DNA of 64,000 nt from NCBI GenBank assembly GCA_965178125.1, contig OZ237751.1, forward strand, positions 62,001 through 126,000, written 5' to 3'. Origin of the DNA: Bilabrum cf. latius. Its lineage: Eukaryota. Below, piece after piece: positions 26,312-55,037 of this stretch. Made by a program: the position numbers and the translations under genes. The notes under the pieces were generated by a model that was not told where the DNA came from, did not search any database, and saw nothing but the letters and a program-made list of their open reading frames with translations. How positions within the stretch are numbered: the stretch's first letter is position 1; every line of letters begins with the position of its first letter.

Positions 26312-26432
26312 GATTTACAAAATGCTGATTTGGGGACGAACATTTAAAGTAGCGTGGTAATTCTCATATTAATTGTAATGTGTCAAATCTCATATCATCC
26401 TAGGTGCAATAACCCCTGATCATTGCTTGAAC

Positions 26433-29400
26433 ATGCAACGAATGGTTTCAATTCTGGCTTTCATTGTTTTATCGGTGCACATTGTTGCTGATTCATGCCT
26501 TGATTATGCAACTGATCTGCAGGTGTAGATGCGATCTGGCTCAGGAGTGTTTGTGGACTCTGCAACCCCTACGTTTGCGTTCCGCGTCGGTGGCACAGGT
26601 TTGAAAATGTCTCAAAACTTTCGAATAGTAGTGAATGAACAGCTATAGGGCGCTACAGTTTGGGACTCCGGATGGGTCACATCTAATTCTTCGGTCGTAC
26701 GGTATGGCACTGAGGGCGCGCCACCAACGCCGCTCAAGTCCTATTGGGCGTACACCTGGGGCGTTTAGATGAGTTCAAATGAGTGCACTGTAGTTTATTC
26801 TACGTTTTTTACTGGAATCCTGGCGTTGTCAGACGAAGCTGTGGCACGTGGCTGGGATGACGAGCTCGAATCTCAGTGGATCGGTGCCACGCAGTAGCTG
26901 CCCAAGAATGACTGCGCGTGCTATGAGTAGGACCCGCAGCCGCTGGTTCGCCGTAGAATAAACCATACCGAGGAACTAGGGGTGGAATCAGGCGATGAAA
27001 TAGCCTGGGCGAGCGTGCTGTACGTCGGGCTGGGATTCTCGAGACTGTTCATCAACGGCCAGAGGCCCATCCCAGCCGGGGGTGCCGTGCAGGCCCCGCA
27101 AGAGCTGGGCGGGCCATGGACCACCTATGCGAACCGCACGTACTACGAGGCAGTCGATGTGACGACTAGGCTGAGAGAGCTCGTGAGATACGGGGAGGAT
27201 ATCGTCATCGGGGTTGAGCTGGGCAAAGGGCAGTTCGACCCGCTGCCCATGCTGTTCTTCGGAAAGTTCGACTTCAGGAAGGCCCTCAGCATCGTAGGGC
27301 CTCCTACTTTGCGGCTGGCGCTGGTGGTCCGCCTAACCAACGGCACCCGGGTGGTGGTTTCATCGGAGAGTCGGTCGGGCAGGTGGACCGTGGGCAGGGG
27401 CGCCATCCTGAGGAATAACGTGTACCTGGGGGAACAGAAGGATATGCGGATCGAAGAATCGGACCAAGTGCAGTCCTGGATGGACCCTACCTTCAACCCG
27501 CCCACGCCCTGGCCCTCTGCGGTGAACTCGATCGCCGCCCCTCGATCTGGTGTGCTCCGCCTCGACTACATGCCCCCCCTGGCAGCGAGGCACATGCAGG
27601 ACGGTATCAAGGCGGTCCACGACATTGGAGGGGGCTCTTTTGTCGTAGAACTGCGCGAGGAGATAGCGGGCTGGCTGATGGTGGGCCCCGTGTCGCTACC
27701 CGCGGGCCACGTGCTCAACCTGACGTTCGCCGAGCTCGTCTTCAGCAACGGGTCCGTCAACACCGTCACCACGCTCGCGGGGGCTGTTGGTCGCTGGGAT
27801 GGTAACTTTGGCCAGTGTGCCGTAGTTCCAGCCATCCAGAGAGACACGGTGACGTTCCTGGGATATGAGAACGAGGCATACCAGCCCCAGTTCACCTACC
27901 ACGCCTTCAGATACGTGCAGATCGACAACTGGCCCACAGCTGCCGCTGGTCCCCCCTCTCTGCAGAATTTCTCGCCCGTGCAGCTGCTGGGCTGGACCAA
28001 CGGAGACGAGACTCCGTTCTCCGCGGCAGTTGCAGCGGGCCCCGTAACCTCATCCTCCTCCTCGTCATCCTCGCCAGCCGGTGGCGCCTCTCTGCTCTCC
28101 CGCATCGACGCGATGGCCCGCCGGTCCTTCCAGGCCAACTTCGTGCAGGGCATTCAGAGCGACTGCCCCGCGAGGGAGCGTCTTGGCTACGGCGGGGACG
28201 TGCTGGCCAGCGCAGGGGCGGGGCTCAGCATGTTCGATGCTGCGGCCTTCTACCGCAAGCGGGCGCAGGACTACGCGCAGTCGCAGATGCCCAACGGGGG
28301 CCTCCCTGAGACGGCGCCTTGGATTGGGATCAGTTCCTGTTCCCTGGGCGGGAACGCTGGCCCAGTGGAGTGGGGCGCGGCACTGGTGTGGCTGCAGGAC
28401 CTGCTGTGGCGGGCGGCCGGTGACATGGAGGTGCAGGAAGAGTACGTTGAGTAGGTCCACCGGTGGATTGGCCTGCTCGAGCGCACCGTGGACGCGCAGA
28501 CGGGCCTGCTTCACAGTTCGCTGGACTACTTCATCAGCGATGCGTCGGGGATGTGTTCCGGCAAGGGCACTGGTGCAGCCGTCGAGGGGACTGCCTTCCT
28601 GTACCAGCAGGCGCTGCTGGCCAGCAGGTCTGCCCGCCGGGTGGGCAACGATTCCTTGGTGCAGAAGTACGAGGCTATTGCCAGAAATGCAAAGGCAGCC
28701 TACCGACGGGCGTTCTGGGACAATAGCACGGGGCGCGCGGGGCAGGCCATCACGGGCGGCCGCGGCAACGTGAACGAGCAGCTCATCGCGATGGGCTTCG
28801 GACTGGCGGGCAACGGCAGCGAGCCGCTCCAGCCCGAGGCGCCCACCACGGCCGCCCTCTCCTTCCTCCGGGAACAATATGTCGCGGCGAATTTCTCCTT
28901 CAAGCCCGCGACGTTCGCCACGTGGCAGCTGATGCTGCAGGCGCCACTGTGGTCGAGCGGTGCGGGGGAAGCGTTGTACGGCTGGGTGTCTGACGACAGG
29001 TACCCGTCGTACGGCTACATGCTGGCGCACAACGCCTCCTCGATGTGGGAGCACTGGAACGCGCTGCAGGCGGAGATCTCTTAGAACCACGCGTGGCTGA
29101 ACTCGGTGGTTGAGTTCCTCAGAGGGCACGTGGCCGGACTGAGGCTGCATCCACAGTCGGTGGGCAGCGACTGGCTCGTCGTGGCCCCGCAGCCGTTCGG
29201 GTGGAGGCGACTCTCTGCCGAAGAGTCGTGGGGATTCGCCCCTGGGCATGACCCTCCCCCTGTGACGAGTGCGAACACCACTCGTAGGATCCAGGGTATG
29301 CAGGCCGGGGTCAGCTGGGCCATCTTGGACGCTGGGGGCGAGGCACTAGGGGAGGGACTGGGCAGCGATGAGGCACGTGCCGCCGGGCGCACGGTGCAGC

Positions 29401-29621
29401 TGAATGTGTCGGCACAGGGCAACACCCGGCTGACGGTGCGGGTGCCGCTGTGCAGGGCGGATGCTGGCGATGCGGACCAGGTCGCGGCTTCTTGCTTGCC
29501 GGGAGTCAAGGGGCGATACGAGCAGCTTCCCACTCCGGCGGCGGTATTCGATGTTCAGGGATTCCACGAGTGCAAGCTCTCAGGTCCCTGGATTTGCGAG
29601 CCGGCAACAACCACGTCGTAA
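26433..29621 (+). CDS. Secreted alpha-L-rhamnosidase (GH78), 1062 aa, 7 in-frame TAG
   Basis: Signal peptide MQRMVSILAFIVLSVHIVA; motifs VWDSG, PQFTYHAFRYVQI, SDCPARERLGYGGD, YPSYGYM, SMWEHW, S*NHAW; ends TAA 29619-29621. Confidence 0.92.
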
Positions 29622-34482: not shown

Positions 34483-37400
34483 TCACCGGTGCCTGTGGCC
34501 CGTCCCTCCTGAGTCGTCCGTTGCCTCGCTCAGGCTCGGAGCTCGAGGGGCCTGCGGGGCCCGCATCAGCGTCTCCTGCGCCCTCCTCAGCGCCTCCGCC
34601 ATTCGAGGGGAGGGCAGGGGCGCCGATTGGCCCGCTTGCACCTCGTCCACCCGCGTGTCGCGCGCAGCTCGTGGCCCTGCCTCGGCCCTGGACCACGCGT
34701 CGTCGTCCCTGGGCGCCTGCAGTCCGCCGAAGGCTGCTTCCAGCTGGGCGCGGCGTGCTGCAGTGCGATGCTCCCACTCGCTGCTACTAGCCCCGGTTGC
34801 AGGCTTGAACCCACCCTCCTCCACGCGTCCACCAGACCCGTGCCCAGCCATGCGATCCGCCTTCCAATCGTCCACCGCGGGCTCGTAGGCACCTGGGAGC
34901 CGAGAGGCAGCGTCCGCCGTGGCCTCGTGCACGATCCCTCTGGCCCTGCGCTCGGCTTGTTCCCTGGCCTCCCCCCTGCCGCCGCGATGGCCAGCCCCAG
35001 CCCCAGCCACGGAACCACCACCCATGCCGCTCCTGTCGATCTCGGCAGGCAGCCGCGGCGGAGACACGGCCGGCGAGAACGAGGCGCCGTCGATGACGAG
35101 GCCCTGCCCGCCCGACGGCTTGCGGCCCCGCGCGCTCCCCGGGCCCCCCGGTTCCGCCTCTCGTCCCAGGCCCAGCCCCACGGCAGATGCCTCCGTCTCC
35201 TCTGCCTCCCGCACGGCTGCTGCGACCTCATCCCAGCTGATAGGAAACGCAGACTGCCGGTGGGGTGCACTGCGCTGCGGTGACCCGGGATCCAGGCCTA
35301 CCCTCCCCGCCGGGTCGGGCGAGAAGGTGAAGTGCTGCGGTGAGGAAGCAGAAGCAGGGCCCCTGTCCCTGCGCCCGCGCCCACCTGGTGACGACCCATG
35401 CACCGCGTCCGGGTCCGGGTCAGGACTGAAGTGCGCACCGGGCATCTAAGGCGACTGCTACCTGAGAGACTGCTGCTGGTAACGGTGCTGCTGCTAGCCG
35501 TCGCCCCCCACGGAGGGGTACAGGTCGGCCCCCTGTCCCCTAGGCTCCCCGCCGTACCCGTACCCTCCCTCGTCTCCATACTGGTGCTGGCCACCGTCCT
35601 GGTCTCGCCCTCCGGTTGCCGGCTCAAAGTCGCCCATGCGTCCCCTGCCATCCTCACCCACTCCGCCTGAGCCTCTCCCGCGGTACGCCCGATCGTCCAT
35701 GGGCATGGGTCGCGCAGACCCTGGGGCAAACCCCCCCGCATCACCATGCCGTGCACCAGGACTGCGCCTCGCGTCCTCAGGAAAATCGTGCAGCCCCTGC
35801 CGCCGCTCCTCAACGGCACCCACCCCCATTCCCATTCCCATTCCCATACCACCCTGGCCGCCAGGCAAGACGCCGCCCGCCCGCCAGTCCTCGGCATACT
35901 CCGCCCGCCACTCCATCGCTCCCGTGCGGGGATCGTATCGGGGCTCCCCTCCGTCATAATCATCCTCAGGACCGGCTGCGGGGGCCTGGGACCGCAGCCC
36001 CTGCGCCCAGTCGCGCTTGCCCTCTTCTGCGCCCCTGTCCCTGCCGCGACTGGCCCGCCTGCTGCCGCCGCCGCCTCTGCCCCCGCTCGCAGCCCGCGCG
36101 CCCTTGCTGGCCCCGTCACCGTTCACCACAAAGTCGTCGGACCGGAGATCAGCGCGGCCCCGGCGCCGCCGCTGAGCCGCCTTGGCAGCTGCCGCCCCGG
36201 TATCGCCCCCCGCTGGCCCGCCCCTGCGCCTGGCCCTCGGCGGCCGCTCCAGCTCCGGGGCGGCATCTCCATCCCACTGAGCCCCCGGCTCCAGCACGCG
36301 CACGGACCCGCCCGGGGTCACCACCGCCTGCACCTTGCGCTGCACCTCCACGCGCCCCCGGCCGCGAGCGGGCGTCTCCGCACCGCGCCCGCCCTGCCCC
36401 GCTCCCGCGGCCCCGTCCAGCCGAGTCGATGTCTTGGGCTTGACGTGGGACCAGTCCACCTTCTGGGGCTTCACCCTCGCGGACTTGCGCTTCAGGAACT
36501 TGCCGCCCTTCGAGCCCTGCCCTGCCCCCGATCCACCGGTAGACTAGCCATACCCGCTGCTCCGCACGCCATGGGCCCCTTTGCCCTCGCCCTCGCCGTC
36601 ATCTGCCCCTTCGCTCTGACCCGCTGCTCCCTCCTTGGCCCGCCGCAAGGCACTCTCCTCGCTCTCGCCGTCGGGGGGCAGCAGCCGCACCCGTACCCGC
36701 ACCTCCCCGCGCCCGGGCACCCACTCGTCCGTGCCCTCCCGCGGCTTCCACAGGGGCAGCCACACGGCTGGGGCACTGGGCTCTGCCAGCGCGAACAGGT
36801 CGGCCGGGTCAAGCCCCGCCAGTGTTCCCTCCCTCACGTCCTCCCGCTCCAGCAGTGGCGCGAGTGGATCCCGGGGCGGGGGAGGCGGAGGCCCCCTCTC
36901 CTTCTGCCACTCCTCGGGGTCCACGCGAGCCGCAGCCGCACCGCGCAGCCGCCCCGCCGCCCCCGGGCCCGCTTCATTGGCCTCTTTCGCCCGAGCCGCC
37001 TCCTGCTCCTGCTCGTCCTGCTCCAGGGGCCTCCAGCGCTAGGGACACAGCACGGGCACGGGCAGCCTCACGCCCCCGAGCAGCGGCTCCTTGGCGTACC
37101 TGTCCTCATCCCGAAGGTGCACCCGCAGCTCCATCCCTTCAAAGGCTGGCCAAGCGCCCACTGGCAGCGGAGGCCACTGGACGTCGCCCTGTTCCTGTCT
37201 CTGGTCTGGTTGGCCTTGCTCCTCGAGTCCTTCCGTGGACGGTGCCTCGGCCGCACTCGAAGCCGCCCGACCCTCGCCTCCGCCCTCCTGCGCCGCCACC
37301 GCCACCGACACCGACACCCTCTCGCCCCTGGCCTTGCATCGGGCCGCCGCCTCCTTCCAGCCGAGGTGCACTGCTCGAAGGGGCAGCGCGAACACGAACC

Positions 37401-40400
37401 GCTTGCTCCAGCTGACCCCCGCATCGCCCGCCCCGTCATCTTCGTCACCGCCCCCAGCGCCACCAGCGGCGGCTGGCAGCTCCTCCTCCGGTGCCGGGCC
37501 AGTGGCCTTGGGCCGCCCGAGCCCGCGCCACTTGAGCGGAGCCTCTGGGTCTGGTACCTGGGTTCCCTTGCCGCCCTAACCCTCTCCCTCTCCCTCTCCC
37601 CCACCTCCTGGACTCCTGGCCTTGCCCAACTTCGCGTTCACGGCGGGACACACGAACAGCTGCGCCTCGGCCGAGACCTCCCTCAGGTCCGCCTCTGCCG
37701 CGGCCCGCTGCCTCTCGTCCTCGGAGGCAGCCATGCCGGGGCCCCGACCAGCGCGCACCCCCGGCAGCAGAGCCTTGCCGGGCAGCCTCCTGGCTCTGTC
37801 CACCTCCAGCAGGAGCCTCCAGGCGGGGGAGGGGCGGCCCGGCTGCGCGCCGAATCCCTTGTGCGACCAGCGGTGCGGGCCCGGGGGGAACACACGCGGC
37901 AGCTTTGGAGCCGCCACGGTGATGTCCTCCTGCGCCGCTGCACCCGCGCGCCTCTTGCGCCCCTTCTTTTTCCATGGAGGTGTGGGTGGGCCGCTCTTGC
38001 CCTTGGCCTGATCCCCATCGATTCCTTCGTCGCCCTCACCCCCTCCTTTCTCCTTGTCCTTGTCTGCGTTTGAACCGCCAACCATCTGCCGCGCGCGCTT
38101 GCCGTAAGCCTTCCGCCGCTCCGCAAGCTCCTTGGCCTTGCGGCGGGCAGCTGCTGCCTTGGCCCCCTTGGCACCCTTGCCCGACTGAGACCCCCCACCA
38201 CCTCCTCCGCCCCCGCTCTCTGCCGCAGCCTGCCTCGCCCGCTGCGTAGCCTGGCTCGCATTCTTGCCGCCAACCTTCCACTCCACCCACGCGCGCCCTA
38301 TCCCTTCCAACGACAGCTCCGTCCGAACCGCAGCTTCCAGACCCCGCCGCCTGCGCTCCGCAGGTGGCAGCGAGCCGCGCCCCTTGCCCCTGTCCGTAGC
38401 ACCATCACCCTCCTCTCCCTCGGGGTCTTCTGGCTCGGGGATGGGCGCCCCATCGTCCTCCAGGGCGGCCTTGCTGGAGCCCAGAGCAACCAGCAGGTCA
38501 CCCACCGCGCCCACAAGCTGCTTCTGCAGTCCCTTGAGCAGCAGCACGTCTAGCTTGTCCATCGAGCCAGCGGCCCGATCCAGAAGATCCTGCAACGAGC
38601 ACGGCGCGCCGCCTGCCGATGCTGCCGCCCCAGACCCACCACCCGCGGCTCGCAGCAGCGGCAGCAGCGCATCACCGTTCTCCTCTTGCGCACTGCTGCC
38701 ATCCTCGGGCTCACCGCCGGCAATCTCCGGGGCAGATCGCCGGACCGAAGCTGCGATCTCCCTTCGGCTGTCTCGCCACGCAGCGATGGCCGTCTGTGCG
38801 CGAGGGGACCGCTGGAAGAGCTGCCTCTGCTGGTGGCTCCTCCACGCGGACAGCAGCAGCGATTTCTATCGCTCAGAGAGAGGCAGCTTCACTGCTGGCT
38901 GGGCTGCGGCGGGGGAGGATGGCACCGTCCCTGCGCGACTTGTCGCACCGGTCTGCTGCTGCTGCTGCTGCTGCAGGTCGGCTGCAAGTCCGGTTCCAGC
39001 CCTACCTGGCGAAGGCTAGGCCCCGGCTCCTGCCCCCGACTGTGCCGGTCCTGCTGGCTGGGACTCGACTGCTGGTGGCTGTCCATGATCCTGTGCCTGA
39101 CCCTGTGCCTGCGCGCTCCTCCTCTCCTTCTGCTCCTTGATGTACTGCATGTACGCGATCACATCGGTGGGTGGGGGGGGCTCTGACTCCGAGGAACCTG
39201 CCCCTCGTGCCTGGGCCTCGGCCTGGGCCTGGAACTGGCCTTGGCTATGCTGAGGCTGGGAGGCCGTTTGCTGCTGCTGATGAGGTTGTCCCATGCCTCC
39301 CAGTGGCTAGCCGCTCTGCTGGTACTACTGGGGCTGGTGCATGCCTCCTGACACTCCCATCTGCCCACCAAACGCGTGCTGCTGCTGCACGCCCTGAGAC
39401 ACACCGGGCCCGCGATGATAGGGAGCACCAGCCCCCGGATGTCCCTGAGGGTGCTGCCGGTGCATTGGAGGGAACTCACCAACGCCTGGGGCCACCTGGG
39501 CCACCTGCCCGCCGTAAGGACCCTGCCCGCCAGAGGCAGCGTACGATGGGCGGTAGTACGTGTTGTACCCCACTGCATACCCGCCCTGCGAGCCCACACC
39601 TGCCCCAGCCCCAGAGCCTGCGTGCACAAGCACCATCCGTTCTCCTTGCGGACCCCGCCCGTGCCCCGGCGGGACTGCCATGGGTGGCGCAGCCCCGCTG
39701 TCCCGGGCCGATCGTGACCGGTGCCTCCGCCTAGAGGACCGCCTGCCCCTACCCCTGCCCCTGCTCCTGCCCCTGCCTTCGCTGCCATCGCTCTCGCTCC
39801 CATAGCTGCCAGATCCTTGCCTGTCTTCATCTTCATCTTCTGAGTGGCTGCGCCTGCGCCTCCGTGAGGATCGCTTCCGCCCGCGGCTCCTTCTCTCCTT
39901 CTGCTTCTCCCTCGCCCGCATCGATTTGATCTCCATCTCCCTCGCTGCGGTGGCTGCCTCCTCCCGCGCCAGCTCCTCCCGCCGCTGGGCCAGCGCCCGG
40001 GCCCTGGCCTCAAGCGCCGCCTCCTCCTCCTTGGCCTCCTGCTCAGCGGCAAGTCGCGCCTCTCGCTGCCGATCCGCAGCCCGTCTCGCGTCCTCCCTCT
40101 CTTTCTCGCGGCGATCCGCCTCCAGCCGTTTCTCTCTCAGGGCCTGGGCGTTCAGGTGGCCCACCCGCGCCATGGCATCCCCGCTGCCCCCCGCACCACC
40201 ATGCCCGGAGCTGCCCTTGTACCTAGGCGGCCGGCGCGCTCTGCCAGCTGTTCCTGCGCTCGCTGCACCTGCTCCCGAGCCCACCCCTGCTCCCGCGTAC
40301 GCGCCCACCAGCCTGTCTGCCAGGTTGGACCCCAGCTCGCCCCGAGGGACCAGCCGAGGGGGCTGTTGCGAGCGGGGAAGCTGGCGCCTGTGGAGGTCCC

Positions 40401-41874
40401 CTGCATCCCTGGCCAGCTTTATGCTGCGCCTGATATCGCCGCTCGCGCCCCCTTCCACACTCTCGATGCTGCCCCGCCTGCCGGCAGGCTGCAGCCCCTC
40501 CCTCGCACCTCGCCTCGAGCCGGGGCCGCCATCGCTCTCCCGGCTGCCGATGGACGCACTCCGCCCACCCCGCGAGTCCCTTGCTCCCTCCTCCTGCCCT
40601 CCACTTGCGGGAGCCCCGCCCACGAAATCGTCAAAGGAGGCCCGTAACAGGGCGGAGGGCGCTGGACCCCGACCCCTTGCCCCCCTGCTCGACCTCCTCC
40701 TGCTCCTCCTCTTAGCGGCCTCCTCCTCCTCTGCCCCCTTCTCTTGCCTCTCCGCTGCGGAGGCAGCTGCGTTCGCCCACTGCTGCTCCTTTCTGCGCTG
40801 CCTCTCCTGCTCCACTTGTTCCCTCTCCTGAGCCTCTCTGCGAGCCCGCGCCTCCTCTTGCCTCTCCTCCTCCTCCTCCTTTCTGCGCCTGGCTCTCCTC
40901 TCGTTCTCCATGCGCCGCAGGTCTTCCTCTTCCTCCTCCAGCTGCCGCTCCCTCTCCCTGGCTCTAGCTCGCACCCTCGCCCGCTCGCGCGCGAGCTCCT
41001 CCTCCTCCTGCTCCAGCTCTCGCTGCCTCCTCCTCGCCGCCTCCTCCTTGTCTTTCTCCGCCTGCATGGACTGCAGCCCGGCCTGGATGCCCGCCTGCAC
41101 CCCAGCTGCCACGCCTTTCGCCATCTCCTCCCTCAGCTGGGCGGCAGTCATGGACAGCGGGTCCACCACCTGCCCCGAGGCCCCCTGCCCCGCCCCCTCC
41201 TCGGGCTGGGCCAGCAGGTCTGCCCCGCCCCTCACACCACTGGGAGCAGCAGGGGGTGCTCGCCGGGGGGAAGCAGAGCGGGACCTAGACCTAGATCTCG
41301 ATCTCGATCTCGATCTCGATCTGGGCCTGGGTCTGGGTCTCGAGCGGGGGCTCCGGTCACCATCCCTTGCCCCGCTCTGTTCGTGGTTGCCTCCGTCCCA
41401 CTCAACCGCGCTACCGCTCTCCTTCTCCTCGTGATTATCCTCCTGAGCATGAGCTGCATAGCCTTGTGGACCCGGCGCTCTGTTGATGGGAGCGTCTTGC
41501 AGCTGCCAGTCGCCTCCAGCAGCGCCCTACTATCCCTCCTGCTGTTCGTAGTCCTCCACATCCTCGCGAGCGAGCCGACCCAAGGGAGACTCGGACCCAG
41601 GGCCGGAGCCGCCCCCCTGTGCCCCAGCCCGGGCACCGTCCCCGCCGGAATCGCTGCGGGGGGAAGTCGCGGCGCTGGCTGCCAGCGTGCGCTGCTCTGC
41701 CCACCTCCGCTGCGCCTCGGTCAGCCTCCGCGGAGGCGTCTTGCCTGTTGAGCCGCCCTTGGAAGCGGAAGAGGTGGCCCCACCGCCCCCGTCACCAGAA
41801 GCGGACGATCCACCCGAGGGCATGGCCATGTCGCGGGGGGACGCGTCGCCTGCCCTGCCTGTCTCTATCCTGGC

Positions 41875-41907
<33 letters not shown>

Positions 41908-43374
41908 TCCTCTAGCTCCAGCTCCATCGCCGGCCAAAGCGGGCGAGGCCAGTGGCAGTGCTGCATCCTCCTCTTCACCCTGTCCCTCTGTAGCCCCATC
42001 CTCGGGGCGCTGCCTTGGTGACCGCACCAGCCCATGGCTCCCCGAGAAACTCAGCCGGGCCCTGATGCGCGGGGAGCCGCTGCGTCGCTTTCCTCCGCTG
42101 TTCTCGTGCGGGCCTAGCACGCCATCGCCCCGGCTCCCACCCGCGCCCCCGCCCCCAATCTCGCCGTCCTCCGATGGCGGCTGCGAGCTGCCCGTCTCCT
42201 CCACCAGCTGGATGTCATCGCTCTCTTCCCTCTCTCCCCCGCCCCAGCCCCCGTCGTCGTTCTTGTCTTCGTCCTCCCCGCCCCCCATGTGCAGCGAGAT
42301 CAGTCCAAAGTCCCGCCACCGCACCTCGAATGCCCCCCCTCCAAAGCCCCGGCCCCTGCCTGCACCACCTCCATCCAGCGGCTCGCTGCCTGCCCTCAGA
42401 TACTGCACCAGCCAGATCCATCCCTGGGACGGGTCCTCCCCCCGCCCCACCCCCACCCCCACCCCCACCCCCACTCCGGGGACATACCCGATCTCCCCCG
42501 CCCTCGACAGCCGGAGTGCCCTCCTGCGCAGAGGGGCAGGCCGCCTCCCAGGGGAAGAGTCCTCCGAGCGGGCCGGATCGTCCTCATCCTCCAGCTCGGC
42601 GGCCTCTGCCAGCAGCGGGGGCGGCTCGCTGGGAGCCTCCGACACCGACAGGATCACGCCATCGAGGCCACAGCCGGTGGCGGGCCCTGGCGCGTCGGGT
42701 GGCGGCAGGGACCGCGCGCGGTGGTGCCTGTACGCGTATCCGTCGTCCCTCCACTCCGGCATCCTCCGCTCGTCGATGATGAACAGGCTGCCGGGAGGGG
42801 GACGCACCGGAGGGGCCACGGGGCCCACCGCGTCGTATATCACCTTGACTGCGCGCGCGGCTCCTCGGCGAAGGAAGGCGTGGCTCATACCGAGAGGGAG
42901 CCAACGCTCGCGAGCAGCAGATACCAGTGCAGCAAACGTATCTGGTAGCCAGGTTGAGCTTTCGGGTGACTGAACCACCCTGGGCGCAACGTTCGGATGT
43001 CTCTCGCTGCTCGGCCCAGAAGGACTGCGCGCTGCTAGCCCGACTGGAGGTTGTGATGGCTGCCTAGGATTCGAAACGGAGGTCATCTGACTGGATCTTA
43101 TCACAGCCGGTCCGGGAGAGCTGCGCTACGGCCTTCCACTCGTATAGTTGGGTTGTTGCATTTGAGTCTACTCCTTGATCGTTTCCGATCGGGAGCTGTG
43201 AGTTTCCACACCACTGCTCACCCGCCGCTGCTATGCCACTCGCTACAGTACCGCATCGGCTCTCCTGCGAGCTTCTTCTGTCGCTGCATCCAGTCTCTGC
43301 TGCCACTCCCCAGGGCTCCAATCCCCGCCTTGCTGGGAGGTTCGGCCAGCACCGTGGTCGTCCCGACCAGCCAT
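34483..43374 (-). CDS. Giant (~2960 aa) protein with CG-1-like (CAMTA-type) domain, coiled coils, IQ-like motif and C2-like domain; 16 in-frame TAG
   Basis: ATG 43374 to TGA 34483 in one frame. CG-1-like: AARERWL, PPPGSLFIIDERRMPEWRDDGY, IWLVQYL. IQ-like LLSAWRSHQQRQLF (~38820-38860). C2-like LRVHLRDEDRYAKEPLLGGVRLPV (~37060-37130). KVDWSHVKPKT motif. Confidence 0.75.
41284..41343 (-). repeat. Coding hexamer repeat encoding an RP/RS dipeptide run
   Basis: (GATCTC)n, (GACCTA)n and (TGGGTC)n on +; reads SRPRPRPRSRSRSRSRSRSR in the coding frame. Confidence 0.8.
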
Positions 43375-43854: not shown

Positions 43855-46770
43855 TCAACCTAGCTTGTACCACCAAGCCATCGCCTCGGGCGACGCCCAC
43901 GCCTTGTGCCAGATGTATCCCTTGAACGGCGTCATCTATTCGAGGTCGAGAGTGTTCCCGCCCGTGCCTGTCGTGTCCAGCACCAGCTCGGCATTCCCCG
44001 TGGATGCACTCACCCGCCACAGGTCATTGGATACAGCAGGCTTCTTGGGAAAGTACAGCTCGCCATCCATGACAGGAAACTGCGGCCGCTCGTATCTAAA
44101 GTGCACGCTCCCAGCCCCGGACACGGCCGTCACCGTCGTGGCCCCGTCATACGTGTACAGGTTCCAGTCGGACCCATCGGAACCCATGAAGTACACCTTG
44201 CCGTCGTGCACGGTGGGCTTCGACATGGTTCGCAGGGCATCAGCTGCACCACCGGAAGGTGGTAAGAGCCGCGTCGGTGTCCCGCTCCCAGTGTACGTGT
44301 GGATCTTGTAGTCTGTGTTGCTCCAGTCCACCATGTACAGCTTGCTGTTGAACTCGAACAAGGCCCGGAAATTGATCAGGTTGTTCTTGGTCCTTCCAGA
44401 GTCGTATATCACGTCAACATCATGCGTGCCGGCCTTGACCCTAACCACGGACTGCGTCTCCCCCGACAGCGCCACGTAGCAGTCCCCCTGGAACATGGCC
44501 ATGAAGCCCTGTCGGCTGCTCCAGGAAGCTGGGCTCATGTAGGAGCTCATGTCGGACACACGCGACACGGTCATGTTCGAGTACAGAAAGTACGCTACGA
44601 AGTACTCGCGGTCAACGGCACCCGGGACCATCCATCCCTCGGACTTGCCGAAGAAGAGCACGCGCCCGCCTGCCTCGTCCAGCAGCAGGTCTTTGCCGGA
44701 TGCCAACATGTCCTCACCGACCCCCCTGGTGCCTGGCACGACGTACACCGTGTCACTGGTGATGTTGTACACCACAATTCGCATCAACGACTGCCCAGCC
44801 TCCTGCACTTTCGACCAGTAGACCAGCCTGTCCTGACCCCAGGGGGTAAATGACTCAGGGGTCCTGCCCCCAGTAGATACACTCACCCGCAGCTGGATGC
44901 CATTCGATTCGTCCCAGGAGTACAGACCCTCCTCTGAGTTCTAATTGGCATCGATCGCCCGGAAGAACATCTCGTCTCCCATGGGCGTGAACTCCTTCGG
45001 GACGAATCGGCCTGGGTTGGACGTGTGCTCGAGGTAGCCCCATGACTGGGGGGTCGCCGAGGGTGAGGGGGTGCCGGATGGTGTGATGGACTGCGACGGT
45101 TCAGAGGGCAGCACGAAGGAACACATAGAGGGTGGATCTGCGGAACTGCAACTCGATATGTGGTCAATCGCTACGCTAGCTCCAAACGACACGGCAATGA
45201 TCTTGGTCTAGTTCTCCTGAACTCTTACCGGAGTAGGGCTGTTGCTGGGGCTGGCTGTGACGCTGGGTGTGGGGCTGTTGCTGGGGCTAGCCGTGACGCT
45301 GGGCGTGACGCTGGGCGTGACGCTGGGCGTGGGGCTGTTGCTGGGGCTGGCCGTGACGCTGGGTGTGGGGCTGTTGCTGGGGCTGGCTGTGACGCTGGGT
45401 GTGGGGCTGTTGCTGGGGCTGGCCGTGACGCTGGGCGTGGGGCTGTTGCTGGGGCTGGCCGTGACGCTGGGCGTGGGGCTGTTGCTGGGGCTGGCCGTGA
45501 CGCTGGCCGTGACGCTGGGCGTGGGGCTGTTGCTGGGGCTGGCCGTGACGCTGGGCGTGGGGCTGTTGCTGGGGCTGGCCGTGACGCTGGGCGTGGGGCT
45601 GTTGCTGGGGCTGGCCGTGACGCTGGCCGTGACGCTGGGCGTGGGGTTGTTGCTGGGGCTGGCCGTGACGCTGGGGGTGGGGCTGTTGCTGGGGGTCTGC
45701 GAGGAATAGGGAGGAGAACGAGCGCTTGCAGGCTAGGCTGGGCGATACTGGGGGTACCTACCGACCAGCGAGGGAGAGAGTCAGATCCAATCCATGCATG
45801 CAGGCCTTACAGGAGATGTGGAAGGAGTCGTCGAAGGCGTGGGCGTACCCGATGCAGACGGCAGCGGAGTCCCGGCAGCAGCCGCGCTGGCCTGCTGCCT
45901 CCTCAGCGGGGACAGGTCCAGCAGCACGGGACCCACCCCGGGGGTGGCCGTGCCCTGCCCGCCGTCTCCCGCGGCATCATCAGCCTCCTCGTCCTCATCG
46001 GCGGCTCGCAGTGCTTCCATCACCGCCGGTGGAGGAGGCACCGCAGTGGCATTGCTAGCCGAGACGCCCAGCCCCGGGGCCTGCTCGATGGGCCCCAGCA
46101 CCAGCACCCGGCCGGCTGCCTGGGACCCGAGCGTGTCCACCACGGCCACCGCATCGCTCTCGCTCGAGACCATCACGGCCATCGTGGCCACCATGGGCGT
46201 GTACACGAGGGGACCCGCGGGACCTACCCCCGACCCGCCATCTCCCTCTCCGCCCAGCAAGCTCACGAAGATGTCCCGGCCCGGCGTGCCATCGCCTTGC
46301 GCGGGCAGGCGGGCGCGGGCTCCCTCGGTAATCGCCTGGCTCACATTGCACCGCGTGGATGCGTCGATGCCCGTGGCATTGAACCCGAACGACGCCACCG
46401 TGAAGCCCTGGTACTGGTCGTCCAAGGCGGCGTCAACGAGAGAGCGTTGGCCGTCACTGGCGCACTGGCTGAAGGCATCTGAGACGTTGCGGACCCCGTC
46501 GAGGCCAGCTCCTCCAGTTGCACCTTGCAGTGGTGCAGTGGAGGTGTCGTCTATGGGTGCATCTTCATCTGCTCCCTGGCCCAGCACGAAGAAGAGGGCG
46601 ATTCCGAGCGCGAGCGCGAGCGCGAGCGCGAGCACACCGACTCCAAGCACAAGGCACCACCAAGTGCCCCAATATCCGGCAGCTTTCCGCTTCGGCTGTG
46701 CTCCTTCTACCTTCGCCGTGTTGGCGCTGTTGCTGCGCGTAAGGTCAGATGTTTGGCTGGCGGGGACCAA
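43855..46770 (-). CDS. Membrane-anchored protein with Ser/Thr/Pro stalk and ELWxxDGT-like beta-propeller repeats; 5' end unresolved; 3 in-frame TAG
   Basis: TM helix WWCLVLGVGVLALALALALGIALFFVLG; intron 45697-45810; SPSNSPTPSVTA repeats; propeller-like repeats PKEFTPMGDEMFFRA, PESFTPWG.DRLVY, DGKVYFMGSDG, DGELYF, DLWRVS; TAG 45208, 44941 and 43936; TGA 43855-43857. No in-frame ATG at the 5' end, so an upstream exon is likely (possible acceptor CTGAC...CGCAG near 46733). Confidence 0.7.
45236..45696 (-). repeat. Coding tandem repeat, ~36-bp unit (SPSNSPTPSVTA) with 12-bp subunit duplications
   Basis: + strand unit gggctgttgctggggctggccgtgacgctgggcgtg repeated about 11-12 times. Confidence 0.9.
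45697..45810 (-). other. Spliceosomal intron (114 bp, phase 0)
   Basis: GTAAGG...TTCCTCGCAG; removes an in-frame TGA (45781) and joins TPSTSP|TPSNSP. Confidence 0.8.
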
Positions 46771-47074
46771 TCATGCACTCGTAAAATCTCGAAAATGCCC
46801 AAGTGAAAGTGCAGTAAAGTGTATGTTTTTGAAAGCATTGGAGCCAAACTAGAAGCCATGCGAAGGATTCACGCTCGACTGCGTGTGTCACCGTGCCACT
46901 CTCACATCGGCTTGTCTCGGTCAAACAGCTGGTTTTGGGGAGATACGAATGATGCTGATTGGGCTTCTGCCATATTGTCACGTACCCAGTGAGACTATAC
47001 GTGGGCAAACACAAACAAAGGTTCAGCGTGTGGCCTACACTCGAGTCCACCCACAACGACCCGAAATTTTTTTA

Positions 47075-47119
47075 CGCCGGCGGCGCCGCGACAGTGGCAC
47101 TGCGCCGGCGCCGCCGGCG
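47075..47119. repeat. GC-rich inverted repeat / hairpin between divergent genes
   Basis: cgccggcggcgccg (47075-47088) is the reverse complement of 47106-47119; inner cagtg-g-cactg; preceded by a T run. Confidence 0.8.
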
Positions 47120-47228
47120 CGCAACTTGAAGTTGTTCCGCACATGCTCTCATCTGTAACCTGTCATCGTATCGCAGTCCATGAACAATTCGATGCGAGCG
47201 AAGACCACTCGGGTATCTTGACTCCAGT

Positions 47229-49865
47229 ATGCTATTGTCACGATCTGATTCTACTAGTCCTGAAGGCGTACTGCCATCCGCCGGCGATGGGCCGAGAAGC
47301 CCGAGTGCTGCAACAAGGCTTCCCGATTTCAAAGCAAAGCAGCCAATCGGAGAACCAAGCAGTCACAGTGCTTCGGTTAGCTCCTTTCTTGTACCAGCAG
47401 GTACTAGTGCACGTCGCGCGTCGCAGCTGGCCGCTGAGGAGCAGGCTGCGCAAGACGTCCCGGTCGCTCCGAACGGTGGCAACGGAGCAAGGCATCCAAA
47501 AAAGACAGCCAAACAACTCATTCGTGGAATCATGTCAAGCACAGATGCATCAGCAAGCTCGAATTTTCAGCTTATCAAGCACAGTCTGGTAGCTGCACGG
47601 GCCTTGGGTGGAAACGCGTGGAATCCAGTTTCGGCTGTAACTGGCAGTGGGCACAAGCAGCAGGCCAACGGTCTCAACAAGTTGAGGACAGCAATGGGTG
47701 AAGCAAAGCAAAGCGGGGTCTCGAGGCAGGTGCTTCCCTCCCGCATGTTCCGGACCCTCCTGCAAGCGGTTACATTCGACACCATGTGGCGCCAGGGCCA
47801 AGCAGAGCAGGACAAGGGACGGGACAAATGGGACAGCGATAAAGAAGCCACGGCAGAGATGCAAGACGATTAGTGGCAGTCCCTGCAACGGTCTATTGCG
47901 AAGGCGATTCGCAGCCGCGTTGACAAGATTGCTCGCATGGAGGCAGACTTGCGTGCTGGGTTGGCGCCTGTAGAGGCCGTGAGAGCCGAAATGCAACGAA
48001 AACATGAGGAAAAGATGGAACGCATTTAGCGGCGCCAGAAGTCTCGCATGGCCATTGTCGATCACTTGCATCGGGGCGTCTTTGAGCCCCAAAGCTCGAT
48101 TGCTGCTCATGCCGCCACTGCGACCGCGAGCCATATGAAGCATGCTTTGGATAGCGGTCAGTAGCAAGAAATGCGCGCGCTCAATGGGCTGGCCCGCGCG
48201 GAGAACATCAGCCTAGACAGTATCCATGGTTCGTACCAGGCCTAGTGGGATGCCCAGGACACGAGGGCAGCAGCAGCAACATTGGCTTGCCTGCATGGCG
48301 CAAACACCACGGGAAGCAGGGCATCCGCGCCATGCAGTCCCGCTGGTGGCACCAATGCCGCGGTTGATACAACCAAAACGGAAAGCACCGACTGTGCGCA
48401 AAAAGAATCCAAGCGCGGGGAATCACCCCTGCCAGCCGACGCCAGCGCTGGACGGCACCAGCAGCAGCATCAGCCAAGGCCCGCACGGCATGCACGCCGT
48501 CGCCGCTCTAGCATCGTTGGCGCGGTCCTTGCATTGCCAAGAGGAAGGACATCGCCACCCTTGCTCGCTTCGGGAGGGTCGGGTACCGACTCTGGTGTGG
48601 CAGCTGCGGTTGCAGCTGGTTCGGCAACGTCGGGTGCTGCAACAGCTAGCGATTCTGGCGAGCACTTGCTTGCCCTCTCGCAGGCCTCAGCAGATGCAAG
48701 ACCATCGTAGCAATGGTAGGGTGGTGCCGAAAGCTCAATACGAGCCGGTGACGCGTGCGACAGCGACTCCGCGCATCTGCAGTCGAGCACACGGCACTCA
48801 AGTAAACCAGGGCGCGCCCCCGACACGGTGTCCGGCTTTAGATCTACTTCCCCGCAAAGGGATGCTGCTGCATTACTGGCACGCGTTGTAGCCAAAGAGG
48901 CTCGCGTAAGCTTGAAAGGCGTCCGGGCCCAAGTACCCATCGGGACTTTTATCCGGATGTCTCGTGCCAAGGAGAAGCTGGAAGCTCCGCCTTGCGTAGT
49001 GGCTGAGCCACCGAGAAGATTGCAAGGCAGCAGTCAGGCCGTATCTCATCAACCGTTTGACTAGCAAGCCCGCCAAACGGAAGCGTTGAAACCCCTGCGC
49101 CCTGCAGACAGCTCCAAGGGGGGGGGTGGAGCCATGCCTTTGGTCAAGACATCAGCGGCACAGAGAAGACCAGCTCGCACGCGTGCATCCATTCCCTCTG
49201 CCGGGACATCTGGCTCGGGAACAAGTTCTGTGCCCACGATCGGGCAGCATCACACCTCAGTATCACGTCCGGCGCAGTGCAACCAGTCTCGGCCTGAGCA
49301 TCGCTCCCCAAAGCCACTGCGAATGCGCCGATACGGGCCAGCTGGATCCAGCCCTGGCATCGAGTACCCCTTCCCACGAAGACCGCCTGCACTAGATCAC
49401 CAAACAAGGCATGAGGGTAGGATACGTGACTATACCGCAGCTTGCGGCCAGCCAACCTTCCACAGCTCTGGCCATGCGGGGATGGTGCACTCGCCCATCG
49501 CGACCCTGGTCGAGCAGGCCAGATCGGCAACCATTGGGGCTAATCAAAACCGTGGCGGAACGGACAGCTTGTACAGGTACGCCAGTGGCGCTCGATGGAC
49601 GCCCGAGCAGCAGCAGCAGCGCGGCGGTGTCCGTTCACGAGCTGTCAGAGATGTCCGTCCGAAGCAAGCGATGTCTACGGCACCATCGCCTCTGCGCTTG
49701 CGACGAGGGCATGGATAGCACGGCGCGAGCCTCTCTCGCTTAAATTAGGCTCGCGGGTCAACAAAGAAGGTAGCACACTACCCCTACGCCGCGGCGCTGG
49801 GTGCAGCTAAGCCCAAGCCTCGACGTTTGGTGCCTCTCAAGCTCAGGTGCAAGAAAGGGCCATGA
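47229..49865 (+). CDS. Hypothetical protein with coiled-coil and low-complexity regions (878 aa, 9 in-frame TAG)
   Basis: Same-frame ORFs 47229-47873, 48282-48710, 48828-49064 and 49086-49718 are linked only via TAG; ends TGA 49863-49865. Confidence 0.75.
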
Positions 49866-50068: not shown

Positions 50069-51831
50069 TCATTGCTGAGGCACCTGCTTGCTCCTCTCGC
50101 CACCCATTCCCCCGACAATCGGCATGGTGTAAGGCGCCGCCCCCTGCGCCATCTCGGGAGTCACAGCCATGCCGGGCACCGCAAGGTGCTGGGGCGGTGC
50201 CTGCGCCTGCTGGAATCCATGTCCCTCACCTTTCCCCTGTCCATCCGCTGCCATGAGACGCTGGCTCATGCCATTTCCCTGGCCCTGACCCAGCTCCCCA
50301 GCCACAACTTCTTCTTCGTGCAGCAGCTGCTCCCCGAGCGCGACCAGGTACAGACCCAGCACCGCCAGTACAGTGCCCACGGCAGGCGGCAGCACCTGGC
50401 CGAAGCCGGCCGACCCTCCCCCGATGGTGGAGGCAATGTACGGCACGAACGCGCTCGAGTTGTACACGGGCACAATCGCCCAGCACATGAGGGCCAGGAA
50501 GGATAGGGCCAGTCCGCTGACTCTCGACACGTGTCGAGCCGGGTAGTCCCTTGCGACTGGTACGCTGGAGTGGAATCCGGTGGCAGCAATGGCAACAGGG
50601 ACAGCAAGCAGCGCCAGCATGATCAGCGCTCGAGCCAGGTAGATCCTGGAGCCCGGCCACCCTGCCTTTCTCATGTTGGTGCGGTCGTCCGAGATGATGG
50701 CAGCCAGGTTGCCGCACTCCACCGTGGAGCCCTGGGACCTCACCCAGCAGGCAGACCACAGCCCCGCGTGCTGCCGGTCCATCACCTTGGGGTAGTCGTC
50801 GTCACCCAGAAACGTCGGGGACACGAGCCACTCGTTGGACGCAATCGCACACAGCAGCATGACCCACGCGGCACTGCCCAGAGCGAGAGCCGCCCTTTGC
50901 CCGAACAGCCACTGGTCGCCCGTGGTGAGCTCGCCCGTGCTCGTGTCGTTGGCGCCCAGGGCAAGCACGCCGGCGAGCACCAGCAGGCCCGTGGCACAAC
51001 CCCGCGCGAGCCACAGCCCCACCCCGGAAACCACCGCAGGCGCGATGTTTCCCAGCTTCGAGCTGAACGCACCAGCGGCTGTCACGCCATGCAGCACCCG
51101 ACGCACTGGCAGTTCCTGGCCCTCGTAGCTCTGCTCTGAAGGGGCAAGGAACGTGCCCGACCGGATCCAGCTTGAATCAAAATAAAGCTGGATTCCTAGC
51201 CACAAGAGAGCCCCGGCACATCCCGCGATGCAAGCGAGCTGGGCCGTTGTTCTCGCCGAGCCAGACCCGATCCGAGACACCGAGAAATTGGATAAGTAGG
51301 CAGCGTAGGCCACCCCGGCCACCGAAGAAAAGAAACTAAGCAGACAAAATGCCTGGGCAGCAGACCATCGGCCGTCAGGCACCCTCCATGACGTGCCGAT
51401 GCCTCCACCCTGGTTGTACTTGCTGTCTCCAATCTTTTTCGCTACTTGACTAGCTAGAACACACTTTTTGGACGAGTATTGGCCATTGTCACCCGATTGC
51501 GAGTAGCAAACCTAATATAGCCCTAAATTGACCCTAAGGGGATGGCGATACCCTTCTCCATCGCCTCTTGGAAACACCTCACCTACCCATTCGTTGGAGG
51601 CAATGCCGACAATGGATCCCAGGGCAAGAACTGAGAAGCCAATAAGCGCTGCAACGGTTTATACAAAGGGGATGCGACAAGAAACATGATAGAAGGTGAA
51701 AAAATAGGCTTGCAGTGCATGGTGATTTCAGCCACCGGAGGATCGTGGTAGAGAAAGCGCCCAGAGCAAGGATCCCACCGCCAGTTACACAGTCCAAACT
51801 CACCAAGTCGAGTATATTGCCCAGATCTCAT
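50069..51831 (-). CDS. Multi-pass membrane protein with two tandem claudin/PMP22-like domains (exons 51804-51831 and 50069-51648; 1 in-frame TAG)
   Basis: Repeat 1: IASNEW...NLGLY*VC...KKC. Repeat 2: IASNEW...HAGLWSACW...VEC. Both match the W-GLW-C-C signature; about 8 TM helices; TGA 50069. Confidence 0.75.
51649..51803 (-). other. Spliceosomal intron (155 bp, phase 1)
   Basis: GTGAGT...GTTGCAG; gives MRSGQYTRL-A-LIGFSVLAL and removes an in-frame TAA at 51659. Confidence 0.8.
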
Positions 51832-51943: not shown

Positions 51944-52611
51944 GATCGAGGCACATGGACACGGCTCAGGCCGCGGGATCGAGACACATGGATACGGCTC
52001 AGGCCGCGGGATCGAGACACATGGACACGGCTCAGGCCGCGGGATCGAGACACATGGACACGGCTCAGGCCGCGGGATCGAGACACATGGACACGGCTCA
52101 GGCCGCGGGATCGAGACACATGGACACGGCTCAGGCCGCGGGATCGAGACACATGGACACGGCTCAGGCCGCGGGATCGAGACACATGGACACGGCTCAG
52201 GCCGCGGGATCGAGACACATGGACACGGCTCAGGCCGCGGGATCGAGACACATGGACACGGCTCAGGCCGCGGGATCGAGACACATGGACACGGCTCAGG
52301 CCGCGGGATCGAGACACATGGACACGGCTCAGGCCGCGGGATCGAGACACATGGACACGGCTCAGGCCGCGGGATCGAGACACATGGACACGGCTCAGGC
52401 CGCGGGATCGAGACACATGGACACGGCTCAGGCCGCGGGATCGAGACACATGGACACGGCTCAGGCCGCGGGATCGAGACATATGGACACGGCTCAGGCC
52501 GCGGGATCGAGGCACATGGACACGGCTCAGGCCGCGGGATCGAGACACATGGACACGGCTCAGGCCGCGGGATCGAGACACATGGACACGGCTCAGGCCG
52601 CGGGATCGAGA
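51944..52611. repeat. Minisatellite, 33-bp unit x ~20
   Basis: Unit GATCGAGACACATGGACACGGCTCAGGCCGCGG, head-to-tail with no spacers and only 4 single-base variants. Confidence 0.97.
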
Positions 52612-52694: not shown

Positions 52695-55037
52695 TTACCC
52701 AGGAGCAGAATCCAGCACTGAGGCTTGTCTCGTGGTGCCCGCAGCACCTGGCGTGCCACTTGCTCGTCCTACAACAGCACTCGGTCGCTCATGCTGCTCC
52801 TGTGGCCCCACAATGGCGCTCCACAGACCGCCCAGCAGACCACCTGCATCATCCCCCACCAAACCTCCCGTCCCCGCCCCTGTCCCCTCCCCTGCCGCCC
52901 TAGCCCGCAGCTCCATGTCCCTCTTCGCAAGCAGGCCCAGGGGTCGACCTCCACCGGTGGACGATGCAAAGGCCCCACCAGGGGACGGCCTCACCGCACC
53001 GCGGAGTCCCTGCACCACACCTCGGCTCGCGCGCACCGGTGAACCGCCCACTCCCACCCTGTCCTCTCTGCCCTCGAGCGCTCGCCTCTCGCCATCCCCG
53101 AATCCAAGGATATCCGCGATCGCGGCCTCCATCTGGGCCAGCAGCCCCGACGATCCCCCCAGTCCGCTCGCGTCGAGCGGACCAGAGGACCCGCCAAGCG
53201 CTGCGCCCATGCCTGCGCCCAACTCTGTTTGTTCTCTCATTGCGCGGCGCCGCTGCAGCATGTAGCGCAGGACCAGGTTCCTCAAATAGGCCATCCTCGC
53301 TTCATTCGCGCCCTCCTGTGCATCTGCACCGCTTTCATTCGCAGATCCTTGCCCAGACACGCCACCATTTGAGGCTACCGCCACACTGTCACCGGCCCGC
53401 GCACCCCTGCCAGCCGCGCCCCTCGCAGCCGCCTCGGAGGCAGCGAGCATCGCGCGCGCCGCCCCGCTGGCACCTCCACCCGCCCCCAGCCCAGCCCCTG
53501 TGCCAGCCCCAGTGCCGCCCCCGTCCCGACTGGAAGCAGGTGCCGGCAGACTCAGTGGGATCCTCTGCACGGGCACTGCCGATGCCGCCCCTTGCATCCT
53601 CCTGAGTCTGCTGGCTTCCTGCTCGGCCTCCTCCAGCCTGTCCCGGGCCGCCCGCAGCTGTCTTCGCATGTCCGCCGCCGCCTCCTCCGCCTCGTCCGAG
53701 ATGCGTTCCTTCTGCTTGAGCAGCTCCATGGCCCGCCGGCGATAGGCCGCGAAGTCCCTCCGCAGCTTCTCCATCTCAACGTCCCTCCCCCCTGCACCCG
53801 CAGATACAGATCCATCTCCGCTGCCCCCTGCCTCGCCTGGGACATCGTACCTCAAACCAGCCCGACTCCCGCTCTCCCGTCCCTGCCTATCACCTGCCTC
53901 TGTCTGCGTTAGGGGAGAGCCCCCCAGGTCTCCCGCCAGCGCGCCCCTCAGCGCCGCCGATGCCGCCTCCTGCGCCTGCACACGACCGGCCTCGGCTGCC
54001 CGCGCCGCCGCCGCAGCCTCCCCCGCCGAGTCCCGCAGCGATGCGGACTCGTCCTCTGCCGCAGCTAGCGCCCGCTTGGCCTCTGCCAACTCGGCCGCGG
54101 CCCGCCTGGCCCCCACCTCGGCCTGCACCCTGGCCCGCCCCTCGGCCGCACGTGACTCGGCCAGCGCATGCCGCAGCTCCTCAAGCTCCTCCCGAGCCTG
54201 AGCCAGGGCTAGCGCGCTCCCAGATGCATTGCCGCCGCCATGTCTCTCGCCAGTAGAGGTCCCGGATGCTCTGTGCTCCGCTGCCCGGGCCTTCCCCCCT
54301 TCGATCTGGGACTAGAGTGAGAGGACTGGCACTGCGGCCCAGTCGGCCTGCAGCAGCTGCTGGCGGGTCGAGGCAGCTGCGGCGGCTGCGACCGCGTCCT
54401 CGTCCGTCTCCCCGTCGGGCTCGTCGTCCTCTTCACCGACCAACTGCAGCGCACTGCCGCGCACCCACACCTGTGTGCGTTCTGCGGCAGAGATCCCGGC
54501 GGCCCCAGCCCCCTTGGCTCCGTCGGGCGCGCTTGGCGTCATCTCCACCAGGACCCAAGCCTGCATTGATGGAGGCTACCCAGACTGCGAAACGCTAGCT
54601 GCATTATTTTCTTCAGAATGCAGCACACAAAGAGGTTGCAGAGCTTCTGCGCCAGTGCCGGCCGCTGCTCGAGACACTACGTCAGAAAGCAGCGACTATG
54701 CCAACTACGCCCCTTGTGCAGCGCTATCCGAGCTAATGGTGCCATCTGCCGGTAACATAGCATCAAATGCAGCCTTATTCAACGATTGGCCGCCGTCAAT
54801 GTCGAGGAGACCGCCGTCGCTTCCGGATCCCTCAATCGGGCGCCGAGCTTCAAGTTGGGTGCGAACAGATCCCAGCAAGCGTTGCATTCTTGCTTTGTAG
54901 TTAGAAACTACCTTTTTCTGCGATTCGAGCATCTGTTTCAGCCGCTTTGCCAATCGAATCGCTCGCTCATACCGGTCATCCTTGCCTGTGGCTGTGCCGG
55001 CCGCCATACCGGGCTCCACCCCCCGAACAGAGGACAT
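52695..55037 (-). CDS. GRIP-domain coiled-coil golgin (780 aa, 4 in-frame TAG)
   Basis: ATG 55037; TAG 54705, 54696, 54576 and 54312; TAA 52695. Long coiled coil plus a split GRIP-like motif MAYLRNLVLRYM...MEAAIADILGFGDGER. Confidence 0.75.

Follow-up and report, generated by a model that had tools for sequence, protein, structure and literature searches.

The stretch of DNA analyzed here, 64 kb in length and hereafter called the window (positions 62,001 to 126,000 of contig OZ237751.1 from Bilabrum cf. latius; all coordinates below are those of the window), very probably comes from a GC-rich, gene-dense nuclear genome in which UAG is translated as glutamine and UAA and UGA are the stops, i.e., the code of NCBI table 15. 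The preliminary description of this DNA had proposed that TAG stands for glutamine, a proposal that is refined here in one respect: only TAG is reassigned, and TAA is not. It is at the level of coding sequences that the reassignment is documented. When read with table 11, the window (62% G+C) has as its longest open reading frame (ORF) one of 775 amino acids (aa) on the plus strand, overlapping a minus-strand gene, and the next longest has 636 aa. When TAG is read as sense, a tight row of ORFs appears (3453, 2963, 2879, 1275, 1162, 1064, 878, and 854 aa, and more), and the spacers between the long ORFs measure only 100–850 bases. Fifteen ORFs, totaling 19,154 codons, were counted as genes; 14 have their 3′ end inside the window, and the G+C content of third codon positions (GC3) ranges from 0.58 to 0.79 across ORFs.

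The coding frame of these 15 ORFs is purged of TGA and TAA but not of TAG, far beyond chance. It contains 124 TAG, no TAA and no TGA, whereas the corresponding counts in frames 2 and 3 are, respectively, 301 and 290 TGA, 53 and 50 TAA, and 137 and 151 TAG. TAG thus represents 0.65% of the codons in ORFs and about 12.5% of the glutamine codons, and in-frame UAG is present in the genes supported by Pfam matches, namely those coding for a GH78 α-L-rhamnosidase, for a DNA polymerase theta-like protein (PolQ) with its helicase and polymerase, and for a reverse transcriptase (RVT_1). In all, TAG is an ordinary sense codon evenly spread over gene bodies, with 27, 26, 23, 18, and 25 occurrences in successive fifths of gene length and with positions along genes that compare to those of CAG at p = 0.30 (Kolmogorov-Smirnov).

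Such codons could conceivably escape translation as such, through U-to-C RNA editing or because they lie in introns, in pseudogenes or at sequencing artefacts. The matching sequencing runs include no run on record as RNA, and at least one candidate intron lies in frame within an ORF, two points that favor this explanation. Introns or gene decay would nevertheless bring in all three stops as well as frameshifts, in place of the one-sided counts given above. Furthermore, 26 of the 47 TAGs of region 6427–25584 are covered by contigs of a second sample (X5, ~99% identical) listed with no difference, so the TAGs are not errors of a single assembly; run X5 bears the label “RNA? (probably DNA),” and its unchanged TAGs were not counted as evidence from mRNA. 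The stops of a relative also coincide with eight of these same codons across ~10% DNA divergence, as set out below. Nuclear genes are not known to undergo such U-to-C editing. Overall, it is scarcely credible that the TAGs escape translation in any of these ways.

The amino acid specified by TAG was read primarily from a close relative, represented by public protein records that are 78–94% identical to the window and that result from standard-code gene calls, hence are broken into fragments. At the 13 window TAG positions covered, this relative has glutamine 11 times, serine once, glutamate once, and leucine never. In the GH78 gene (26427–29621, plus strand), fragment P0001 (94% identical) has glutamine at aa 676 and 886. 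Along the 3453-aa protein (6427–16788, plus strand), fragments P0008, P0009, P0010, P0013, and P0021 provide glutamine at aa 1256, 1799, 2020, 2033, 2535, 2664, 3026, and 3112, the close relative has serine at the TAG of aa 1361, and P0011 and P0012 cover no TAG. In PolQ (16945–25584, plus strand), P0014 has glutamate at the TAG of aa 954 and P0015 glutamine at aa 2005, the latter fragment starting with M-Q-R-A-S-G where the window reads V-TAG-R-A-S-G; P0016 covers none. The TAG tally is on par with that of ordinary glutamine codons, which serve as a yardstick: of the 147 CAG and CAA codons of the window that these fragments cover, 131 (0.89) face glutamine. Across 3676 aligned columns, no other amino acid of the window is matched by glutamine more than 3 times. 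A likelihood comparison run on 12 positions (10 glutamine, 1 serine, 1 glutamate) gave log10 values of -4.8 for glutamine, -16.9 for lysine, the next best, -23.1 for glutamate, and -31.4 for serine, i.e., a preference for glutamine of ~12 log10 units. This tabulation of orthologous residues is the check that the preliminary description had itself proposed, and the outcome that would have refuted it, with mostly Glu, Leu, Tyr, Trp, or Lys at TAG, did not occur.

The places where the relative's fragments stop provide a reciprocal signal. Among 11 close-relative fragment ends, eight fall exactly at a window TAG, from which it follows that the relative keeps the same in-frame stop codon there. P0001 ends at a window CAG, P0011 ends at most one residue from a TAG, across a gapped stretch, and P0014 runs into the candidate intron of PolQ. 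The earlier idea that CAG and TAG interchange as synonymous codons is borne out in both directions, by glutamine in the relative at window TAGs and by the end of P0001 at a window CAG.

Glutamine is also what the immediate surroundings of TAG suggest. Among the neighbors located within three positions on either side, glutamine accounts for 62 of 743 residues at TAG (0.083), as compared with 0.079 at CAG, 0.056 at CAA, and 0.037–0.056 at the other 19 amino acids. When non-TAG codons are drawn at random in the same number per gene, they have 33.0 glutamine neighbors (standard deviation 5.8), and none of 2000 permutations reached 62; random glutamine codons have 49.4 ± 7.0, with 101 of 2000 draws at 62 or above. 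TAG therefore behaves as a glutamine codon of glutamine-rich tracts, as had been proposed from inspection of individual tracts, and every example cited in the preliminary description was found where it had been reported. Many of these examples belong to the 2963-aa ORF (34483–43374, minus strand), which codes for a low-complexity protein in which Gln, Gly, Arg, and Glu abound, contains 16 in-frame TAGs and ends in TGA. Its TAGs have their first bases at 43245, 43233, 43170, 43128, 41532, 41529, 39327, 39309, 39018, 38868, 37578, 37041, 36546, 35496, 35460, and 35448. With x standing for TAG, they include those of AVLxRVAxQRR and IKExTQMQQ (43245, 43233, and 43170), the consecutive pair of EQQEGxxG (41532 and 41529), those of HQPQxYQQSGxPL (39327 and 39309), and those of GDGxQQHRYQQQSLRxQSPxM (35496, 35460, and 35448). 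The other examples are scattered over the window, at 5626 (LQxQT), 14029 (EATxQMQ), 16687 (DILSxAG), 29082 (SxNH), 48162 (GQxQE), 51514 (GLYxVC), 57248 (HKQxQS), and 61307 (RMLxA).

TAA does not share the fate of TAG. The most widespread variant of this type in eukaryotes, by far, is NCBI table 6 (PMC5304391), in which UAG and UAA both specify glutamine and UGA is the sole stop, and a GC-rich genome could in principle make TAA rare enough to pass unnoticed. Indeed, the GC3 values disfavor codons ending in A, and 11 of the 14 ORFs with a 3′ end in the window terminate with TGA, an outcome that table 6 leaves unchanged. Yet the ORFs use 675 CAG and 196 CAA, and applying this CAA:CAG ratio to the 124 TAGs leads to an expectation of ~36 in-frame TAAs if TAA were glutamine, against none in the 19,154 codons. 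Moreover, the three remaining ORFs end in TAA; under table 6 they soon run into a TGA, after 3′ extensions of only 36, 34, and 8 codons, and the GH78 ORF is in addition lengthened by 46 codons on its 5′ side. The codons so added contain 4, 2, and 1 extra TAA or TAG, a density of ~5% that resembles non-coding DNA, as opposed to 0.65% inside ORFs. A homologue 39% identical to the GH78 protein has its C-terminus ~10 residues or less from the position of the GH78 TAA. TAA is thus a terminator and not a sense codon within this window, as is UGA, which never occurs in frame and ends 11 of 14 genes. The lack of in-frame TAA where ~36 were expected, together with the three TAA-ended ORFs, leads to table 15 and not to table 6, which is very unlikely to apply.

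Several observations weigh against the assignment of UAG to glutamine with UAA and UGA as the only stops, and are gathered here. First, positions with TAG in both species are unreadable, as the public gene calls break there, so the tally given above consists of differing positions only, a restriction that favors no particular amino acid. Second, two of the 13 positions are not glutamine (serine at aa 1361 of the protein of 6427–16788, glutamate at aa 954 of PolQ); each is one base from TAG and lies in a less conserved stretch. Third, more distant homologues are mixed. Fragments 33–42% identical to the 3453-aa protein give glutamine twice (aa 1212 and 1266), asparagine once (aa 1256), alanine twice (aa 719 and 799), and glycine once (aa 777), in a tally of 6 cells at 5 distinct TAG positions, aa 1256 being counted again. 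The GH78 homologues (28–39% identical) show glutamine in 1 of 15 cells, along with three Asp, three Pro, two Thr, and others once each, and PDB homologues have His, Ile, and Phe at aa 886 of GH78. TAG stands mainly in variable columns or insertions, where distant homologues (those of GH78, the PDB relatives of PolQ, and the Pfam families) say little about the residue. The earlier remark that semi-conserved positions tolerate glutamine, which was based on such columns, was fair in itself and yet carries little weight, the columns being variable in distant homologues.

These residues are what would support a sense codon of another meaning (Glu, Ser, Lys, Leu, or Tyr) or of ambiguous meaning, for which there are also precedents, since UAG is cited as serine in the green alga Scotinosphaera and as leucine in a rhizarian (PMC11687900). 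The 11 glutamines among 13 close-relative positions and the likelihoods of lysine, glutamate, and serine all run counter to it, and the neighbor composition of TAG matches that of CAG and of no other amino acid. Another residue at UAG is accordingly a very remote prospect.

A further point on the opposing side concerns gene ends. No ORF needs TAG as a stop at the 14 gene ends judged, but the last TAG of the ORF 56820–60647 sits three codons before its TAA, the sole place where a TAG terminator is arguable. A dual meaning, in which UAG would be glutamine inside genes and a context-dependent terminator at some gene ends, as in some karyorelict ciliates and Condylostoma, could account for this codon, and 14 gene ends are too few to establish that TAG never terminates. 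With TAG making up 0.65% of codons, however, the chance that one or more of 14 genes would carry a TAG among the last three codons is ~0.27, and TAG is neither depleted nor enriched toward 3′ ends. Such a dual meaning is unlikely.

The last opposing point bears on mechanism: a tRNA scan and an Rfam scan of the 64-kb window found no tRNA gene and no Rfam match, and the eRF1 gene lies outside the window, so that the decoding machinery proposed here, a tRNA-Gln(CUA) and a modified eRF1, is deduced from known codes. In UAG=Gln eukaryotes, tRNA-Gln(CUA) and changes in the GTS motif of eRF1 have been described (PMC5304391; PMC9161772), and the T32G change of Iotanema eRF1 was proposed in the same sources to abolish UAG recognition. 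By analogy with these codes, a cognate tRNA-Gln(CUA), whose anticodon differs at a single base from that of the CAG-reading tRNA-Gln(CUG), would read UAG and not UAA, and eRF1 would no longer recognize the third-position G of UAG and would still recognize UAA and UGA. A glutaminyl-tRNA synthetase accepting the CUA anticodon may possibly be part of the same change. From then on, CAG and TAG would be interconvertible by synonymous C-to-T and T-to-C changes, and TAG could spread through glutamine positions, above all those of glutamine tracts.

Codes in which UAG alone has become glutamine were reported for Iotanema spirale, Hartmannula sinica, Trochilia petrani, and Protocruzia tuzeti, as listed in PMC11687900. 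The fornicate I. spirale uses table 15, with UAG alone as glutamine and UAA retained as a stop, and the evidence adduced for it is of the same type, i.e., in-frame UAG at glutamine positions of orthologues; that evidence consists of the transcriptome of an anaerobic gut flagellate (PMC5304391), whereas the evidence here is genomic and comes from a gene-dense contig of 62% GC. Nothing ties the window DNA to this gut fornicate. The phyllopharyngeans H. sinica and T. petrani and the ciliate P. tuzeti have the same code as the window and, as here, their UAGs are spread over the gene body like synonymous glutamine codons (PMC11687900). A ciliate source is unlikely for a 64-kb multi-gene stretch at 62% GC, precisely because of that GC content and of the length of a contig bearing many genes. 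The macronuclear genomes of ciliates are AT-rich, and in phyllopharyngeans the chromosomes are gene-sized.

Table 6 is the code of many ciliates, of hexamitin diplomonads, and of several ulvophyte green algae (dasycladalean, cladophoralean, and trentepohlialean). These systems resemble the window in the change of UAG from stop to glutamine, presumably via tRNA-Gln(CUA), and differ from it in that TAA is not sense here. The rhizarian exLh (Leu) and Scotinosphaera (Ser) share with the window the divergence in meaning of UAG and UAA (PMC11687900), and what sets the window apart from both is the residue, here glutamine (11/13) rather than leucine (0/13) or serine (1/13). The code-15 phages (crAss-like and Lak) also read TAG as glutamine, although in phage genomes and not, as here, in eukaryotic genes (PMC9523058).

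Full-text searches, outside of which lay subscription journals and supplements, found no report of a GC-rich eukaryote, neither ciliate nor fornicate, with UAG alone as glutamine. There is a real chance that the case has already been described. We tentatively consider, at somewhat less than even chances, that the window represents a separate and hitherto undescribed origin of the UAG-only-to-glutamine code, located outside the ciliates and the fornicates in a gene-dense eukaryote of high GC content, and shared by at least two species ~10% apart in DNA and perhaps by a deeper clade. The deeper clade may hold because the homologues at 33–42% identity are known only as short ORFs, one of which stops at a window CAG. 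These records (P0020, P0022, P0023, and P0024, covering aa 437–1282 of the protein of 6427–16788) exist solely as ORFs of 84–203 aa, and it is P0023 whose end coincides with a window CAG codon. Taken together, these features hint at in-frame stops in a more distant relative as well; contig ends or introns could also explain them.

In any event, the window is a further case of a rare and already described code variant and not a new kind of mechanism. The nuclear codes in which UAG and UAA differ in meaning are few, those named being Iotanema, three ciliates, one rhizarian, and Scotinosphaera, and any additional independent case is of use in testing how eRF1 separates UAG from UAA and whether tRNA-Gln(CUA) suffices. 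If the origin is indeed separate, UAG would have been captured in a GC-rich genome with the rarer UAA still serving as a stop, a situation relevant to the question of why the reassignments of UAA and UAG generally go hand in hand. On the practical side, the standard code breaks every long gene, as illustrated by the public fragment ORFs P0001 and P0008–P0016, and annotation of this genome and of its relatives needs table 15, failing which badly truncated proteomes will result and may be misjudged as poor assemblies or pseudogenes.

As to its gene content, the window is eukaryotic nuclear DNA, gene-dense and intron-poor, on the basis of its PolQ-type fusion, its retroelement, and its candidate spliceosomal intron. 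A phage or organelle origin was considered and ruled out by these same three features and by the 62% GC. The PolQ gene at 16945–25584 combines a helicase with a family-A polymerase (DNA_pol_A, E = 2.6e-36, plus DEAD and Helicase_C in Pfam); read through, it codes for 2879 aa, contains 19 in-frame TAGs and ends in TGA. A search of the ESM Atlas with its polymerase core returned only generic DNA_pol_A clusters and no useful taxa. Within this ORF, a 102-nt segment on the plus strand (20464–20565, GTGAGG...CGCAG), in frame, without TAA or TGA, and pyrimidine-rich before CGCAG, is exactly skipped in one X5 contig. This segment probably represents a spliceosomal intron, in frame by chance, in which case 34 residues of the 2879-aa reading derive from the intron. 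Fragment P0014 of the relative ceases to align in this region.

The GH78 α-L-rhamnosidase (1064 aa, 7 in-frame TAGs, TAA end) matches four Pfam domains (E = 4.6e-46), and PDB searches concur with both the PolQ and the GH78 assignments. A comparison of the GH78 core with JGI metagenome contigs yielded 106 pattern matches and no relatives. The 3453-aa ORF contains 28 in-frame TAGs and ends in TGA; the label “BLTP2” that it had received in the preliminary description is unconfirmed, no Pfam family matching it at E ≤ 1.

The retroelement ORF (2642–6130, minus strand, 1162 aa) has 9 in-frame TAGs and ends in TGA, with a reverse transcriptase match in Pfam (E = 9.1e-22). It appears intact under the variant code of its host, and its 9 TAGs, in the absence of any TAA or TGA, indicate that the mobile element uses the same code. 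RVT_1 occupies aa 376–594, and no recognized endonuclease domain accompanies it. A tally of residues drawn from retroelement copies was considered and rejected, given that TAG in dead copies would be biased toward nonsense changes derived from CAG.

Among the remaining genes, the ORF 56820–60647 (minus strand) has 1275 aa, 11 in-frame TAGs, and a TAA end; the ORF 52695–55037 (minus strand) has 780 aa, 4 in-frame TAGs, and a TAA end; and the ORF 47229–49865 (plus strand) has 878 aa, 9 in-frame TAGs, and a TGA end. Weaker Pfam matches were obtained for a claudin/PMP22-like ORF (50069–51577, minus strand), whose match lies below the Pfam cut-off and whose single in-frame TAG is the one at 51514, and for half of a J domain. 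The latter belongs to a DnaJ-like ORF (55302–56672, plus strand) in which only the second half of the domain is present (profile positions 24–63) and in which no TAG occurs in 456 codons. The first half is probably located on an upstream exon, so the genome would be intron-poor rather than intron-free. The 2963-aa protein has a weak match to CG-1 (CAMTA-type DNA-binding) at aa 186–218 (E = 0.0031, 17.7 bits vs. a cut-off of 23.5 bits).

Near-identical or ~90% identical DNA is found in runs of five studies, including an “algae metagenome” and a “protist metagenome.” Relative to the window, the ~90% identical relative (X8/X9, region 6427–25584) shows T>C changes 333/368 times and A>G 313/331 times, vs. 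194/204 for C>T and 252/273 for G>A, an excess indicating that this relative is somewhat more GC-rich at variable sites.

Two tandem arrays complete the picture of the window. The first, at 45236–45694, is made of a 36-nt unit in ~12 copies (81% matches) and gives rise to a repetitive LGLAVTLGVG “ORF” (45242–47158), which is probably not a gene. The second, at 51944–52611, consists of 20.2 copies of a 33-nt unit (98% matches) and is open on both strands, its plus strand reading SRHMDTAQAAG repeatedly; it lies directly downstream of the minus-strand ORF 52695–55037.

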